From a virus (Duplodnaviria; Heunggongvirae; Uroviricota; Caudoviricetes), in IMG/VR virus record IMGVR_UViG_2778260995_000003, positions 1 to 4,983 of that record: a stretch of 4,983 nucleotides of DNA. The stretch is one strand, 5' to 3'. Positions 1-4,983 of this stretch are shown here, piece by piece. The notes under the pieces were generated by a model, which worked only from the letters and a program-made list of their open reading frames with translations, made no database searches and had not been told where the DNA came from. Every line of letters starts with the position of its first letter. The stretch's first letter is position 1. The position numbers were made by a program, and so were the translations under genes.

Positions 1-362
1 ATCCGCGACAGCACGAAAGTACAGAATGCGGTTTCCACCACTTCAGCGGAGTCTCTGGCATTTTTCAGCTCCTGTGCGTCGGCCTGCGCACGCGTAAGTC
101 GATGGCGTTCGTACTCAATAGTCCCTGGCTGGAGATCTGTCTCGCTGGCCTGCCGCAGTTCTTCAACTTCCCGGCGCAGCTTTTCGTTCTCAATTTCAGC
201 ATCCCTTTCGGCATACCATTTTATGGCGGCGGCAGAGTCATAAAGCACCTCATTACCCTTGCCACCGCCTCGCAGAACGGGCATTCCCTGCTCCTGCCAG
301 TTCTGAATGGTACGGATACTCGCACCGAAAATGTCAGCCAGCTGCTTTTTGTTGACTTCCAT
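1..362 (-). CDS. nu1: Terminase small subunit Nu1, 5' part (about 120 codons; gene runs off the window start)
   Basis: Reverse-strand translation from ATG at 362-360 reads [71 protein letters not shown]..., nearly identical to lambda Nu1 as I recall it. It sits immediately downstream of a cos site, as in lambda. The supplied ORFs 102..461(+) and 221..427(-) are other frames of the same DNA. Confidence 0.93.
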
Positions 363-391
363 TGTTCATTCCACGGACAAAAACAGAGAAA

Positions 392-581
392 GGAAACGAC
401 AGAGGCCAAAAAGCCCGTTTTCAGCACCTGTCGTTTCCTTTCTTTTCAGGGGGTGTTTTAAATAAAAACATTAAGTTACGGCGAAGAAGAACGGAAACGC
501 CTTAAACCGGAAAATTTTCATAAATAGCGAAAACCCGCGCGCCTTCCGCCCCGTAGCCTGCCGGATCGCTGGAAAGGACCC
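392..581. other. cos: cos packaging site: cosB (R1 392-398, R2 432-438 inverted, R3 493-499, AT-rich IHF-type segment about 455-480), cosN (540-551), cosQ-like GGGTCCT (575-581, minus strand)
   Basis: The minus strand reads ...GGGTCCTTTCCAGCGATCCGGCAGGCTACG / GGGCGGAAGGCG / CGCGGGTTTTCGCTATTTATGAAAATTTTCCGGTTTAAGGCGTTTCC..., which aligns almost base for base with the lambda right-end/left-end junction as I recall it. Three GGAAACG / CGTTTCC elements lie in the lambda R1/R2/R3 arrangement upstream of Nu1. Confidence 0.8.
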
Positions 582-626
582 AGCTACTAGCGAATGCCAG
601 TAGCCAAGGTGGGCTGCGGGCTTAAT

Positions 627-872
627 TTAAAGCGGTGTGATTTGCAACCATTCAGACGCACTAATCTCAAAGCGACGTCCGTTAGACAACTCGATAATCA
701 CGGGTAATTCACCTAGCTCCAGCCAGGCGTTTTTTTCCGTTGGAAAACTAACAGTAGAGATCTGGTAATCCGATACGCTTTCAGCCAGTCGGCAACTTTT
801 AAACACATCACCAAGGGCGGACGCGAAGAATTCATTTAGCTCATATTCAATCTGCTCTTTAGCTGCTGTCAT
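627..872 (-). CDS. Hypothetical protein (81 aa), last ORF before cos
   Basis: ATG at 872 to TAA at 627-629, on the same strand as the late operon. Codon choice looks typical for E. coli (GAA, AAA, CTG, GCG). The ribosome-binding site is weak (GATGAGACAGAAAC before the ATG). I recognise no similarity to any protein. Confidence 0.45.
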   Translation of the reverse strand: MTAAKEQIEYELNEFFASALGDVFKSCRLAESVSDYQISTVSFPTEKNAWLELGELPVIIELSNGRRFEISASEWLQITPL

Positions 873-1004
873 GTTTCTGTCTCATCAACTTGAATAGGGT
901 AATCAGGAATGGATGCGAACTACAGGTCGTCTGCACCATCTTTCAGATTAAAGCAGCTCCACATTTCGTCAGGGTCAGTATTAGCCGACATCTCTCGCAC
1001 CTGA

Positions 1005-1115
1005 TTAATATTTGGCGATATTACAACAGGCACTCAATGAATGCATGTTGTAAGCCTCTCGCTCAGGAGCACTGAATCGTTCCATTATTGAATTAAATTT
1101 CTGCGACTCTTTCAT
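1005..1115 (-). CDS. Hypothetical small protein (36 aa, MKESQKFNSIMERFSAPEREAYNMHSLSACCNIAKY)
   Basis: ATG at 1115-1113 is preceded by a consensus Shine-Dalgarno (AGGAGG, then TTTTG, then ATG). The supplied 91-aa ORF 1005..1280 is the same frame extended to an upstream GTG that has no ribosome-binding site. Support is the ribosome-binding site only; no similarity recognised. Confidence 0.3.
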   Translation of the reverse strand: MKESQKFNSIMERFSAPEREAYNMHSLSACCNIAKY

Positions 1116-1137
1116 CAAAACCTCCTGACAAAGATAC

Positions 1138-1157
1138 CGTGCGACCACGGTCGCACG
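1138..1157. promoter_or_regulatory. 20-bp palindrome CGTGCGACC-ac-GGTCGCACG (two 9-bp arms, 2-bp centre); possible operator or stable RNA hairpin
   Basis: Arms at 1138-1146 and 1149-1157 are exact reverse complements. The site lies 11 nt upstream of the AGGAGG of the 36-aa ORF on the minus strand. On the minus strand it is followed by GTATCTTTGTC, which is only weakly U-rich, so a terminator role is doubtful. Confidence 0.3.
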
Positions 1158-1445
1158 CTCCTGAATACATGCCCTGTTTCTTCCACCCTCGCACAGGGCT
1201 GGCGAGCATGAGGGACAAACCCGCGAATCATAAACGTGGTAAAAACCCGGTGTGCATCGTTTTTGATTATTCCCACACACTCACGCAGAAGGAATTCCCC
1301 GTCGGGCTACGGTCATGGTTAATGCAGGAATACGGCGACGATACAGCGCATAATGTGTCAGGCTTGAATACCTTTATCGAATCCCGGTAACGAATTCTCC
1401 TGACGTTCCAGTCAGGTGATGATATGCATGGTGAGATTCAGATAT

Positions 1446-1469
1446 GAAAAAGCCCCGCTAAAAGCGAGG
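1446..1469 (-). terminator. Intrinsic terminator downstream of the 124-aa cargo gene
   Basis: Minus strand reads CCTCGC-TTTTA-GCGGGG then CTTTTTCATATC (5 Watson-Crick pairs plus one G-U, then a T-run). It starts about 20 nt after the TAA at 1489-1491. On the plus strand the hairpin is not followed by a T-run. Confidence 0.55.
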
Positions 1470-1488
1470 TCATAAATCACTTAATATC

Positions 1489-1863
1489 TTATTGAGGACG
1501 CTGGAGTAATCCGTGCTGAGCGAGAGTTAGAGCAATGTCATAAGACCCTTGCCTGTCTTTATAGCAAGTTTTATCAACTAGCTCAGCTTTGCTAATTCCG
1601 GGTAAATCAAGAATCAGATTCGCAACTTCAATTGCCCTTTGGTACAACTTACCGATCTTTTTCTCCCCATGCTGTGGTTTTACATTCTTCAGATAACCGC
1701 TATCCGCCAGAGCGAGAAACGTTGCCCTTGGGCATCCCTTCTTTCTTGACGATTCGCTTTCTGTAACCTCTGCAACAGCTGCATCCCATGCATCACGAGG
1801 GGATATTGAATTATCAGCAACCAAATAATAAGCAATTAAAGCGGCGCGCGCGTATTGAGACAT
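1489..1863 (-). CDS. Hypothetical cargo (moron) protein, 124 aa (MSQYARAALIAYYLVADNSISPRDAWDAAVAEV...LTLAQHGLLQRPQ)
   Basis: ATG at 1863 to TAA at 1489. The supplied 141-aa ORF begins at a GTG at 1914 that overlaps the Rz 3' end; I prefer the ATG. The coding region is visibly AT-richer than the flanking R/Rz (about 43% vs about 50% GC by rough hand count). It has its own terminator and occupies the slot where lambda carries bor. No TM segment or lipobox; no similarity recognised. Confidence 0.55.
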   Translation of the reverse strand: MSQYARAALIAYYLVADNSISPRDAWDAAVAEVTESESSRKKGCPRATFLALADSGYLKNVKPQHGEKKIGKLYQRAIEVANLILDLPGISKAELVDKTCYKDRQGSYDIALTLAQHGLLQRPQ

Positions 1864-1901
1864 AATGCATCCATATACAAAAATCTTATGATAAGACTTT
1901 T

Positions 1902-2345
1902 CTAATATGAACACTGTGATCTCACATACTCTTGCAGACCATTCAATTGGTTAGTTACGGTTTCGATGCGCTCTCTGAGAACGAAATAATCCCGTTGAGC
2001 GGTGTCAGTAAGTCTGGGGCTGGCACCATCATCCACGTCGGAGGCGGCGGTGGTTTTATGCATGTCCGGACAGACTGCTTTGACGCGCAGCCACTTACGA
2101 CCAGCAAAAACATCAGCACGTAGACTTTCGATAGTCGCGTTAGCATCAGCAAGCTCCTTTGTGTATCTGGCGTCGAGTTCTGCTACATCACGTTGACGCT
2201 TCTGCATGTCAGCGATAGTGGATGCGGCTTTGTCGCGCTGCTCTTTGTAGGCGATGGCGTTATCACGGTAATGATTAACAGTCCATAACAGGCAGACGAT
2301 GATGCAGATAACCAGAGCGGAGATAATCGCGGTTACTCTGCTCAT
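1902..2345 (-). CDS. Rz: Spanin inner-membrane subunit Rz (i-spanin)
   Basis: [39 protein letters not shown]...[23 protein letters not shown]... closely matches lambda Rz as I recall it. It has an N-terminal TMD, and its ATG overlaps the R stop (ATGA). Confidence 0.93.
1955..2146 (-). CDS. Rz1: Spanin outer-membrane lipoprotein subunit Rz1 (o-spanin), embedded in the +1 frame of Rz
   Basis: [55 protein letters not shown]... has a lipobox (LVVSGC, Cys20), a penta-proline tract and a lambda Rz1-like C-terminus. ATG at 2146 is preceded by AAGGAG plus 7 nt. The supplied ORF start at 2152 is a TTG two codons upstream. Confidence 0.9.
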
Positions 2346-2818
2346 GCCTGATTCTCTCTGACCGTTCCGCCAGCTTCTTTGAATTTTGCAATCAGGATGT
2401 CAGTCTTATGCTCGAACTGACCATAACCAGCGCCCGGCAGTGAAGCCCAGATATTGCTGCAACGGTCGATAGCCTGACGGATATCACCGCGATCAATCAT
2501 CGGTAAAGCTCCACGCTCCTTAATCTGCTGCAGTGCAACAGCGTCCTGGCTTTTGGGAGAGAAGTCTTTCAGACCAAGCTGCTTACGGTAGGCATCCCAC
2601 CAACGGGAAAGAAGCTGGTAACGTCCGGCGGCTGTTGATTTGAGTTTGGGGTTTAGCGTGACAAGTTTGCGAGGGTGATCGGAGTAATCAGTAAACAGTT
2701 CGCCGCCAACAATAACATCATAACCGTGGTTACGTGTCGGTTGTCGCCCGTTATCCGTTCCTTCTGACCAAGCTAACATATCGAGGAAGGCTTTACGCTG
2801 AGGATTAAGATTTTGCAT
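2342..2818 (-). CDS. R: Endolysin, lambda R-type lytic transglycosylase (158 aa)
   Basis: [62 protein letters not shown]... is near-identical to lambda R from residue 7 onward. The catalytic Glu19 in the AWSEGT motif is present. Its ATG at 2818 overlaps the holin 3' end by 14 nt. Confidence 0.95.
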
Positions 2819-3110
2819 TTTTCACCCCTGTCAGTCGTTCCCAGAAGTACGTCAGTGCAACCGAACCCATCGCACCACTAATCCCCGCTGTCGCGAGAAT
2901 CATGTAAATACTGAATCCACTTTCGATGCTGATCAGGCCACCAATAACACCGGTGAATCCTGATACCACTATTTGAGCCAGAGCATTTATCCAACTCCAC
3001 GTTGCTTTACTCTGCTTCACATCTATCAGGTAGCGGACCAGACCGCCCCAACCTGCGATGATCAGCAAAACGAGCCAGAACGCTCCGGCAAGGCTCTCTT
3101 TTTCGTGCAT
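2805..3110 (-). CDS. Holin, class I-like topology (three predicted TMDs, charged C-terminus); not lambda S
   Basis: The gene lies immediately upstream of and overlapping R. The protein MHEKESLAGAFWLVLLIIAGWGGLV...WSWINALAQIVVSGFTGVIGGLISI...[36 protein letters not shown] has three hydrophobic spans and a basic tail. ATG at 3110 is the only ATG start; an in-frame TTG at 3122 adds MAIH. It does not align with lambda S as I recall it. Confidence 0.7.
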   Translation of the reverse strand: MHEKESLAGAFWLVLLIIAGWGGLVRYLIDVKQSKATWSWINALAQIVVSGFTGVIGGLISIESGFSIYMILATAGISGAMGSVALTYFWERLTGVKNAKS

Positions 3111-3224
3111 ATGAATAGCCAATGTTTCGCCGCCGACAAAAGGCCGGGACGTTAAATGTCAGAAATCAGGCTCACGGGGTAATTTAACGACAAAGCACGG
3201 AGTTTATGCTCCCCGCAAGCCTGG

Positions 3225-3250
3225 AATAAAAAAGCCAGCATGTAGCTGGC
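3225..3250 (-). terminator. Intrinsic terminator in the late-operon leader (second of two)
   Basis: Minus strand reads GCCAGC-TACAT-GCTGGC followed by TTTTTTATT. On the plus strand the hairpin is followed by AACAGAGGG, so it is minus-oriented. Confidence 0.55.
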
Positions 3251-3327
3251 AACAGAGGGTTAAGCAATATCAACTCAACAGCTGAAGACACCCTGGCTGG
3301 GGTAGGTTGGAAGGCTACTCACCGTCC

Positions 3328-3364
3328 AGAAACAGAAAAGCCCAAGGCTTAAAACCTCGGGCTT
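3328..3364 (-). terminator. Intrinsic terminator in the late-operon leader (first of two; tR'-like position)
   Basis: Minus strand reads AAGCCCgAGG-TTTTAAG-CCTtGGGCTT (6+3 bp stem with one mismatch) followed by TTCTGTTTCT. It lies about 50-80 nt downstream of the candidate late promoter. Confidence 0.5.
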
Positions 3365-3419
3365 GAATTTGGATTACTGCCAGTGCGTACAACATTGGCA
3401 AAATATCAGATTTACATGA

Positions 3420-3448
3420 AATATATGCTTTTTAATCCAGTTTTGCAA
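3420..3448 (-). promoter_or_regulatory. Candidate sigma70 late promoter (-35 TTGCAA, 17-bp spacer, -10 TATATT) straddling the stop codon of the Q-like gene
   Basis: Minus strand reads TTGCAA-AACTGGATTAAAAAGCA-TATATT. A -10-like GATATT (plus 3402-3407) sits about 5-15 nt into the predicted transcript, where Q-type systems have a sigma-dependent pause element. This is motif reading only. Confidence 0.4.
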
Positions 3449-4121
3449 TATTTTGCTGTGAAAATGTCGCCTTTTGTTTTGAACGTGTTCTCGTTACAAG
3501 CAATAAAGCTTCGCTATCAAGCTGTAGAAAAATGTGCTTCATTGCAACCCAGCGTTCAGTGAATGTCTCAGACCAGTTTTTTGATGTCACTCCCACCAGT
3601 GATGCCAGTTCCCGGTATTCATAAGTCTCACGTCCAGCCAGCTCGCTCTTCACATCCTGTGCTGCCAGCCAGATCAACTTCTTTAAGCGTTCCAGTGTCT
3701 TACTGGCAATTTTTCTTGTACCTAACAGAGTCTTAAACTCGTTCCATGCCCACTGCGTTATGGCAACCTGATGCTCCCAGCGAACACTTTCGCTGTAACT
3801 CCACAGCAACCACGCTTTCTGATGTTCTTCGAGAGACAGAACCGCGCGGCGCCATGAAGATGTTGAGAACTCAACCTGGCTGACCAGTGCAATGGATGGA
3901 CCTTTTGCGTACGACTGCTTACCGGAAATCGGCGGATTATCCAGCGTAATCATCCTGCCAGTTACCTCATCCAGAATGCGCGGCTTCTTTCGTTTGTAAG
4001 TACCAGTATCAAATTGTGCATGCTCCAGCCAGGCTTCAAGCTGGCCTTTCGTTGCTCCGCTCAAATCAGCGGTAGCCACAATGAGTTGCTCGCGGACATA
4101 CTGTAAATATTGGGTATTCAT
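3432..4121 (-). CDS. Putative late-gene antiterminator (Q-like by position, 229 aa; not lambda-Q type)
   Basis: ATG at 4121 is preceded by AAGGAG plus 7 nt. It sits between ylcG/rusA and the promoter-terminator leader ahead of the lysis genes, which is the Q slot in lambdoid phages. The C-terminal segment YEYRELASLVGVTSKNWSETF looks like a helix-turn-helix. The sequence does not resemble lambda Q as I recall it. That this is a real CDS I rate about 0.9; the confidence given here is for the Q function. Confidence 0.55.
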   Translation of the reverse strand: MNTQYLQYVREQLIVATADLSGATKGQLEAWLEHAQFDTGTYKRKKPRILDEVTGRMITLDNPPISGKQSYAKGPSIALVSQVEFSTSSWRRAVLSLEEHQKAWLLWSYSESVRWEHQVAITQWAWNEFKTLLGTRKIASKTLERLKKLIWLAAQDVKSELAGRETYEYRELASLVGVTSKNWSETFTERWVAMKHIFLQLDSEALLLVTRTRSKQKATFSQQNIAKLD

Positions 4122-4258
4122 GCGGCAGCTCCTTTCAGTGTTTTGGCGTAATTCTTCAGTATCCGGTAATCGGTCAAAACAGAACCGGGGAAACGATATA
4201 AGCGCAGGCGCATCCAGCGGTGGCGAAGACGTTCTGCCACATAAGACTCAAACATCAT
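4118..4258 (-). CDS. ylcG: YlcG-like small protein (46 aa, [46 protein letters not shown])
   Basis: This ORF is absent from the supplied track because it is short. Its ATG at 4258-4256 overlaps the rusA stop (ATGA) and its TGA overlaps the ATG of the Q-like gene (ATGA). It sits between rusA and Q as ylcG does in DLP12, and resembles YlcG as I recall it. Confidence 0.7.
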
Positions 4259-4617
4259 TCATTCCCCAGTTCGGTGATGGTCAGCTCCAGCTTCCCACCT
4301 TTGGTAACGGGCATCTTCACAACGCGGTAATCAACGACCTGAGCATCATCCAGCCAGAAACCTGCTTTGGTGAGTGCGTCAAAAGCTGCTTTTTGCAGAT
4401 TATCCAGGTCACGGCGACGGCGATCCGGCATGTGGCACTCAATACGGATTTTCACTGGCATAGCCAGACCGATATCCAGCATGGAGCCTTTGATGATTCG
4501 GGCGACGTTATCGCGGTATACCTGCCCCTCTGCGCTGATGTGCGTGCGCCCGCGATTATGGCGGTAGTAGCGGTTATTGCTCGGCGGCCAGGGTAGTGTG
4601 ATGTAGTAAGTATTCAC
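4255..4617 (-). CDS. rusA: Holliday junction resolvase RusA (120 aa)
   Basis: [43 protein letters not shown]...[58 protein letters not shown] closely matches E. coli RusA as I recall it. The catalytic acidic residues (D70, D72, D91) are present. The start is a GTG at 4617 overlapping the ybcO stop (GTGA). The supplied 141-aa ORF overextends to an upstream ATG. Confidence 0.95.
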
Positions 4618-4904
4618 GCCTTGATTACCCCCTCTTTCAGCCAGATAACCTGCGTTCTCGCCATACCTTCCAGCGCGCATTCTTTTGCATACTCAGCATC
4701 GACAAAATGTGTGCGGCGGTCGATTTCGTCGTGACAGGCAGAACATGCAATGGTGGCAATCAGGTCTGGCGGTTTGATACCGGTACCGCCCAATCCAGCC
4801 AGCCGGATATGTGCCAGTACAGACGTTTCAGGATTGCCATTACATACGCCAGGGATTCTTGCCTGGCATTCCCGACCACGCGCTGCTTTTCTCAAATCAG
4901 CCAT
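4614..4904 (-). CDS. ybcO: YbcO-like protein (DUF1364-type putative zinc-binding nuclease, 96 aa)
   Basis: [64 protein letters not shown]... matches DLP12 YbcO as I recall it, with Cys-x-x-Cys-His and upstream Cys clusters. ATG at 4904 is preceded by AGGAGG plus 5 nt. The supplied ORF start at 4943 is an upstream TTG. Confidence 0.8.
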
Positions 4905-4983
4905 GGTTCCTCCTTGCTGCCAGTCGCAACCATTTTTTATCAACCAGGCTGGCGGTATATCCGAGCAGTGTTGGTATTTCGGA
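4897..4983 (-). CDS. ninE: 3' end of an upstream gene (C-terminal 28 codons), NinE-like by position and basic W-L-R...A-R-R tail
   Basis: The open frame enters from the window end as ...[28 protein letters not shown] and stops at TGA 4899-4897, overlapping the ybcO start region by 8 nt. The identity is inferred mainly from gene order (ninE-ybcO-rusA in DLP12). Confidence 0.5.
   Translation of the reverse strand, partial: SEIPTLLGYTASLVDKKWLRLAARRNHG

Follow-up and report, generated by a model that had tools for sequence, protein, structure and literature searches.

The stretch of viral DNA analyzed here, 4,983 nucleotides (nt) long (positions 1 to 4,983 of the IMG/VR record IMGVR_UViG_2778260995_000003) and called the window in what follows, carries on its minus strand, between the spanin genes and cos of a lambda-like late region, an open reading frame (ORF) for a protein of 124 amino acids (aa). 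As judged from profile matches, this ORF is a full-length member of the family DUF6979 / PHROG 5039, which is already catalogued, and comparison with related prophages places it as an accessory cargo gene of the "moron" type in the variable slot between Rz and cos of a lambda-like prophage. We read its product as a small, non-enzymatic binding protein acting in phage-host or phage-phage conflict, with a probability of roughly 45%, because the family recurs in nuclease-based defense loci and sits in prophage cargo slots.

The family and its conserved residues

With the Pfam model DUF6979 (PF22399), whose curated gathering threshold is 27 bits, the protein scores 103.6 bits (E 1.1e-29), its residues 1-121 aligned over the entire model (1-127 of 127), and it matches PHROG 5039, filed under the category 'unknown function', at E 1.5e-69 over positions 1-124 of 124. 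A preliminary description of this DNA, made from the letters alone, had been unable to match the protein to any family, a statement overturned by these two models and by the label in RefSeq; NCBIfam gave a noise-level match only. The likeness to the family extends to the same length and the same W...KxCP signature, and near-identical genes are annotated in E. coli prophages and in SfI, 4A7, Lambda_4C10, and mEp460_4F5. The RefSeq label "DUF6979 family protein" is found in 249 of 5,426 complete E. coli genomes, always as a single-copy, chromosomal gene adjoining a "lysis protein", and the gene is present in nine phage records (including SfI, 4A7, Lambda_4C10, D2, 1W, 3W, and mEp460_4F5), always directly after Rz. 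A longer form starting at GTG-1914 (141 aa, overlapping Rz) was rejected, since homologues and database annotations all start with MSQY or MNKY.

The substitution pattern indicates that the ORF is a real protein-coding gene under purifying selection. Pairwise ratios of nonsynonymous to synonymous substitution (dN/dS) lie between 0.15 and 0.55 among E. coli alleles, and between 0.17 and 0.22 against the Salmonella copies, where dS is about 1. Of the 47 copies in IMG/VR, 45 keep an intact ORF, 44 of them with 124 aa and one with 128 aa; of the other two, one is cut at its N-terminus and one is truncated.

In composition the ORF departs moderately from the flanking lysis genes, being AT-richer as first described: Rz and R have a GC content of 50% and the ORF has 44.8%; at third codon positions (GC3) the ORF drops to 36.8%, where Rz, R, S, and Q have 47-51%. 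The protein has a predicted isoelectric point (pI) of 8.9 and lacks a transmembrane (TM) segment, its maximum Kyte-Doolittle mean over 19 residues being 1.05; a lipobox, a hydrophobic N-terminus, and a Pfam Bor match are absent as well. With neither signal peptide nor lipobox, a Bor-like lipoprotein was rejected, in agreement with the earlier assessment.

The family extends far beyond enterobacterial prophages. A profile search of 1.84 billion representatives returned 599 clusters (at 50% identity) with E <=1e-3, spread over many phyla, nearly all of them single-domain proteins of 120-140 aa. Nearer relatives outside prophages are carried by Kluyvera and another enterobacterium, in small islets on the chromosome. 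The longer members show no second Pfam domain, and most of their extensions resemble mis-called starts. Domain fusion was accordingly rejected as a hint to function, as extra Pfam domains are absent and PDB yielded no relative for the 350-aa tail of P0074; among the weak secondary Pfam matches over 45 family members, none is recurrent.

Over 151 aligned sequences from many phyla, W26, K42, C44, and P45 are conserved at 97-99%; together with F49, L52, and G56 they form a set of residues, each conserved at 94-99%, that is complete in the window protein. The consensus around them reads S-x-S-S-R-K-K-G-C-P-R-x-A-F-L-G-L-C-E-x-G. A second Cys, conserved at 79%, is missing from the window protein, which has A53 instead, and the enterobacterial prophage clade carries DRQGSYDI in place of the family motif NGQMDVV. 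The alignment holds no conserved set of His, Asp, or Glu suggesting catalysis, and since no catalytic motif is recognizable, the protein would most likely act by binding. The near-invariant single Cys-Pro belongs to a basic loop at the start of a helix, where it may bind a ligand or a metal or take part in covalent chemistry.

The structure prediction and fold search proposed earlier succeeded in their first half: an AlphaFold2 model built on a 14-sequence alignment is confident (pLDDT 89.7, pTM 0.85), and it is compact and all-helical, its seven helices falling into two three-helix units. The second half brought no relatives, as Foldseek with this model returned nothing at E <1 from PDB or BFVD, and sequence profile searches of PDB with single-clade and family profiles met no solved relative. 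The predicted fold thus yields no functional assignment.

A mobile cassette behind Rz

The gene lies in the following arrangement, in the order in which the minus strand is read:
1902-2345, minus strand: Rz (i-spanin), Pfam Phage_lysis at E 2e-40, stop codon at 1902-1904
1955-2152, minus strand: Rz1 (o-spanin lipoprotein), embedded in Rz, its translation bearing the lipobox LVVSGC and a proline-rich stretch
1883-1911, minus strand: sigma-70-like candidate TTCATA-17-TAAGAT from a relaxed scan, a weak match (8 of 12) no better than chance
1864-1901, minus strand: AT-rich spacer of 38 nt, from the Rz stop codon to the ATG of the DUF6979 ORF
1489-1863 (stop codon included), minus strand: DUF6979-family coding sequence (CDS), 124 aa, ATG start, from the ORF list
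1446-1469, minus strand: intrinsic-terminator-like hairpin (stem-loop 1469-1453) and T-run, from a terminator scan and RNA folding

With Rz and Rz1 identified and Nu1 and cos mapped, the placement of the ORF between the spanin genes and cos holds as originally given, as do its coordinates, its strand, and its spacer. Its status as cargo in a variable slot also holds: at the same position the gene is present in some close relatives and absent in others, and the junction between Rz and cos carries bor or other genes in lambda, PhiR47_2, and UPEC85. Together with the deviating GC3 and a downstream terminator of its own (hairpin and T-run, 1469-1446), this resembles the profile of a moron, a concept reportedly due to Hendrix, Juhala, and colleagues. 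The likeness to lambda bor and other morons between Rz and cos therefore covers the variable slot, the optional presence, the distinct composition, and the flanking terminator. It does not cover expression or product: bor generally encodes a lipoprotein expressed from its own promoter, and the PhiR47_2 record annotates it opposite to the late genes, whereas the window gene lies on the late strand, has a product predicted to be soluble and cytoplasmic, and shows no convincing promoter in consensus scans.

What moves is more than the ORF. From the alignments of related loci, the mobile cassette is composed of the 3' tail of Rz, the 38-nt spacer, the ORF, and the intrinsic terminator. Among the IMG/VR loci, the homology blocks shared with the window begin at the start of Rz or R and end at the DUF6979 stop codon, just past the terminator, or past a small plus-strand ORF, reaching about 1138-1170 of the window in many loci; the spacer is kept with 0-2 mismatches in 43 of the 47. 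The Rz allele of the window occurs at >=95% identity in 246 E. coli genomes, compared with the 249 that have DUF6979, other Rz alleles of this species diverge exactly at the 3' end, and it is this end of Rz (about its last 36-110 nt) that travels with the cassette.

Salmonella prophages carry copies with 70% protein identity, also after a spanin gene and in one form with the identical 38-nt spacing. In one Salmonella locus (L092) the resident Rz ends 322 nt upstream, and a remnant of about 110 nt of an Rz 3' end plus the spacer stands directly before DUF6979. Between E. coli and Salmonella, the block of Rz tail and spacer (50 nt) has diverged less than the CDS, a difference that may simply reflect recombination. 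In a more distant lineage, at 44% identity, DUF6979 follows a different holin, lysozyme, and a 115-aa gene, and precedes a colicin-immunity gene and Ivy, so that the position after the lysis genes is fixed in three diverged prophage lineages.

Several loci show further rearrangements at this site. Between the resident Rz and DUF6979, the Salmonella locus L092 holds, besides its non-coding remnant of a second Rz 3' end, a small membrane ORF (5678-5962), and another Salmonella locus (L093, 4710-5914) has an IS3-family transposase inserted between Rz and DUF6979. In E. coli UPEC85 (L007, 2625-3062), an unrelated ORF of 131 aa is joined on behind the Rz tail, the 38-nt spacer, and the six starting codons MSQYAH, and next come genes for a 298-aa hypothetical protein and a 'globin family protein'; the fusion after MSQYAH therefore points to a recombination junction in the DUF6979 gene itself, within its 5' end.

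The terminator had been reported within about 20 nt of the stop codon, and its hairpin CCTCGCTTTTAGCGGGG (1469-1453, minus strand), followed by CTTTTTC, indeed starts 19 nt past it, with an RNA fold of -12.4 kcal/mol (z = -2.7 against shuffles). In Salmonella it is kept with only a loop change while its flanks are divergent, and the window-type terminator is present in 26 of the 47 IMG/VR loci. The allele group of SfI and ST80 lacks it and has instead a 67-aa predicted membrane ORF, then a strong terminator (AAGCCTCGCGTCGCGGGGCTT and a T-run, -17.9 kcal/mol). In E. coli ST80 (L005, 4632-4835 and 4582-4602) and phage SfI, this ORF and terminator stand just before the HNH and terminase genes.

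The start of the gene gave less. The spacer is AT-rich as stated (23.7% GC), and a weak Shine-Dalgarno GGA (1872-1870) lies 6 nt before the ATG, with AGGA in the Salmonella copy. The independent promoter that the preliminary description had suggested might lie there found no support in consensus scans: on the coding strand upstream of the ORF, no sigma-70 site with >=9 of 12 matches was found, and the best candidate in the spacer or the Rz 3' end, at 8 of 12, is weak and no better than chance. A near-palindrome in the spacer (AAAAGTCTTATCATAAGATTTTT, 1901-1879) was rejected as an operator or structured RNA, being neither conserved nor compensated in Salmonella and forming an RNA hairpin of only -6.7 kcal/mol.

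In lambda, Q-modified polymerase starting from pR' reads through terminators. As the DUF6979 gene lies on the strand of the late operon, it would therefore be transcribed late regardless of its terminator, and the conservation of this terminator suggests that some non-antiterminated transcription also crosses the gene. Under the conflict reading, Q-antiterminated polymerase would transcribe DUF6979 during lytic growth, as the final gene of the lysis segment, and some Q-independent transcription would cross it too and be stopped by the terminator. The protein would then bind nucleic acid, a small ligand, or a partner protein via its basic RKKGCP(R/K) loop, and may serve as a modulator in that conflict, for example by excluding other phages or by tuning nuclease-based defense.

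Distant relatives and competing explanations

The genomic context of distant members was surveyed in 70 loci from GTDB species genomes (with our own ORF calling and clustering of neighbors), including Flavobacteriia, Paenibacillus, Acidobacteriota, Halomonadaceae, and a Methanolobus. A McrB-like AAA+ protein is encoded directly downstream in 8 of the 70 loci and McrC in 10; HsdM and HsdS are near DUF6979 in 5, a PtuA-like ATPase is found in 3, together with an HNH protein in 4, and an AbiV-like HEPN protein in 4. Single cases comprise DndD, GmrSD, an SNF2-Mrr fusion, an Eco57I/MmeI-type enzyme, a KAP NTPase, a STAND-like ATPase with TPR repeats, Fic, and EVE. A same-strand neighbor lies within 60 nt in 40 loci. 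Counted per locus on this ORF calling, a defense-type neighbor stands within a few genes in at least 18 of the 70, counts that are given without a background control and come from a sample biased to Flavobacteriia.

In eight loci of Flavobacteriia (L009, L020, L014, L038, L056, L043, L008, and L012), DUF6979, a McrB-like, and a McrC-like gene form an apparent three-gene operon, with gaps of -11 to 36 nt in five of them. The trio directly follows an ATPase and HNH pair in L009, L020, and L056; PtuA models are among those in the PADLOC tally of neighbors.

These surroundings recall PrrC-type accessory ORFs of restriction loci: distant DUF6979 genes lie within or abut operons of type I restriction-modification (R-M), McrBC, GmrSD, and PtuA-like ATPase/HNH systems, often a few nt from the neighbor. 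PrrC is a large ATPase-nuclease encoded in the EcoprrI type I locus, whereas DUF6979 has about 125 aa and no catalytic motif. The host-interaction or phage-exclusion role proposed in the preliminary description is in this respect compatible with the defense-island neighborhoods of distant members, even though the PADLOC models lend it no match.

The same idea can be carried further. DUF6979 may be a widespread, so far unrecognized single-gene player in anti-phage conflict, a small module binding ligands or nucleic acids through its near-invariant W/K-x-C-P site. On chromosomes it would serve as a plug-in to nuclease defenses, modification-dependent ones among them (McrBC, GmrSD, Mrr, and type I R-M), and in prophages, as a moron next to the lysis genes, it would shield lysogen or phage from competitors; this extension we put forward tentatively, as possible but rather doubtful.

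The uncontrolled and biased neighbor counts weigh against the conflict reading, and so do several other points. None of the PADLOC-DB v2 defense hidden Markov models matches the protein (0 families at E <=1), and we found no mention of DUF6979, PF22399, phrog_5039, SfI_0065, or the RefSeq protein accessions in the papers searched. In the survey, 30 of the 70 family members are isolated, and a single conserved partner is absent. An exclusion role requires expression in the lysogen, and consensus scans found no convincing promoter of its own. Finally, the repeated placement beside lysis cassettes could point to a role in the lytic cycle instead.

The last point leads to the most serious competitor, that of a late-operon accessory gene read only from pR' via Q and aiding the phage's own lytic growth, be it by counter-defense, by protection of progeny DNA, or by help in lysis or packaging. 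Much of the local evidence agrees with it: the gene lies on the late strand, 38 nt past Rz, preceded by a Shine-Dalgarno sequence though by no promoter that matches the consensus, its Rz allele occurs in nearly as many E. coli genomes as DUF6979 does (246 and 249, an almost perfect linkage), and its place beside the lysis genes is kept over lineages of 44-70% identity with unrelated lysis proteins, while in more distant prophages it stands between a Q/gp23-like zinc-finger protein and the lysis genes. A conserved terminator, on the other hand, would have no effect on Q-modified polymerase and so implies other transcripts, many lambdoid phages do without DUF6979, and most of the family is non-viral and found in chromosomal defense loci; a direct role with periplasmic lysis proteins is also unlikely for a protein predicted to be soluble and cytoplasmic. 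We therefore hold this alternative to be unlikely as it stands, while giving it appreciable weight.

A mechanistic variant with weak support from the structural model would make the protein a small DNA-binding regulator of helix-turn-helix (HTH) or winged-helix type, comparable to controller or BrxR-type proteins, that would reprogram host or phage transcription. The R-M controller C proteins and BrxR/CapW are likewise small and basic, often head defense operons, and share a weak helical-bundle similarity, and DUF6979, with its pI of 8.9 and its conserved RKK loop, is often the first gene in McrBC-type operons. It differs from them in having no HTH family match or significant fold match; no recurrent Pfam HTH family emerged among 45 members scanned down to E = 5, the would-be recognition helix is hydrophobic in the family (MDVVLAL), and the upstream palindrome is not conserved in Salmonella, all of which renders such a regulator improbable. 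Still far less credible is a functionless ORF, hitch-hiking or decaying, that would be kept by linkage to its Rz allele. That linkage is tight, and a known function is absent; yet the dN/dS values well below 1, also against Salmonella at dS of about 1, the intact ORF in 45 of 47 viral contigs, the roughly 600 clusters over many phyla with near-invariant residues, and the confident fold prediction effectively refute it. The binding protein acting in conflict thus remains our preferred reading.

For the phage specialist, a cargo gene that is already catalogued in a well-known slot holds no surprise and leaves current understanding unchanged. Its value is that of a lead: a broad family with a confident fold but no solved relative, a near-invariant basic Cys-Pro loop, and recurrence both in defense operons and beside lysis cassettes, for which a function found for the E. 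coli copy could be the first for the whole DUF.

On distant prophage contigs, DUF6979 is often located between a zinc-finger protein of about 270 aa and the lysis genes, a position that is the other classic lambdoid cargo slot. The zinc-finger protein precedes and overlaps DUF6979 in eight such loci (L148, 4181-4990; L146, 4112-4975; and L149, L150, L154, L165, L151, and L152). It carries CxxCxGxG zinc-finger repeats and a weak C-terminal likeness (pairwise E 2e-5) to a Salmonella protein that Pfam calls 'Antiterm' (P22-type antiterminator), and has no Pfam match of its own; it may be an uncharacterized type of late antiterminator.

Other features of the window

The minus strand of the window reads as the late region of a lambdoid phage. 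Apart from the genes already listed, it contains:
minus strand, first in reading order and before Q: ybcO-like gene, rusA, and ylcG
minus strand: phage-82-type Q, Pfam Phage_antiter_Q at E 1e-94
minus strand, between Q and Rz: LydA-type holin, then GH24-type endolysin
1208-1390, plus strand: small convergent ORF, 60 aa in the RefSeq annotation, which goes with the terminator-bearing cassette allele
362, minus-strand late region: start of Nu1, with the cos region near 536-552

The best database matches of the window are E. coli prophages and phages, including PhiR47_2, D2, and mEp460_4F5; no database record covers the whole window at high identity, in line with the usual lambdoid mosaicism. From the DUF6979 ORF to cos there are about 940 nt of further cargo in the form of small ORFs. 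The annotations of Lambda_4C10, SE15, and CFSAN018748 list the plus-strand ORF at 1208-1390 as a hypothetical protein, and it has no family match in Pfam, PHROG, NCBIfam, or PADLOC.

In the interval from the DUF6979 cassette to cos, the segment 582-1137 (about 560 nt) is missing from all 47 related IMG/VR contigs, where position ~1138 is joined straight to ~581, and just 2 of the 5,426 E. coli genomes have it complete. It contains a minus-strand ORF at 627-872 (81 aa) without a match in Pfam, PHROG, NCBIfam, or PADLOC, and a terminator-like hairpin lies at 1157-1138. Because of its absence from the related contigs, its rarity in E. coli, and an ORF without family match, the segment is best described, from these comparisons, as a second, rarer cargo insertion.

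In the gap between Q and the holin gene (3196-3448, minus strand), a promoter-like TTGCAA-17-TATATT (3448-3420) is followed by three terminator-like hairpins (3364-3338, 3250-3234, and 3217-3196). This site and its hairpins presumably correspond to the pR'/tR' arrangement expected for a phage-82-type Q. At the other end, the cos region at about 536-552 of the window reads ACGGGGCGGAAGGCGCGCGGGTTTTCGC on the minus strand. Taking the lambda cohesive end to be GGGCGGCGACCT, the cosN of the window would appear to deviate at several sites, in contrast to the lambda-like flank on the side of cosB and Nu1.

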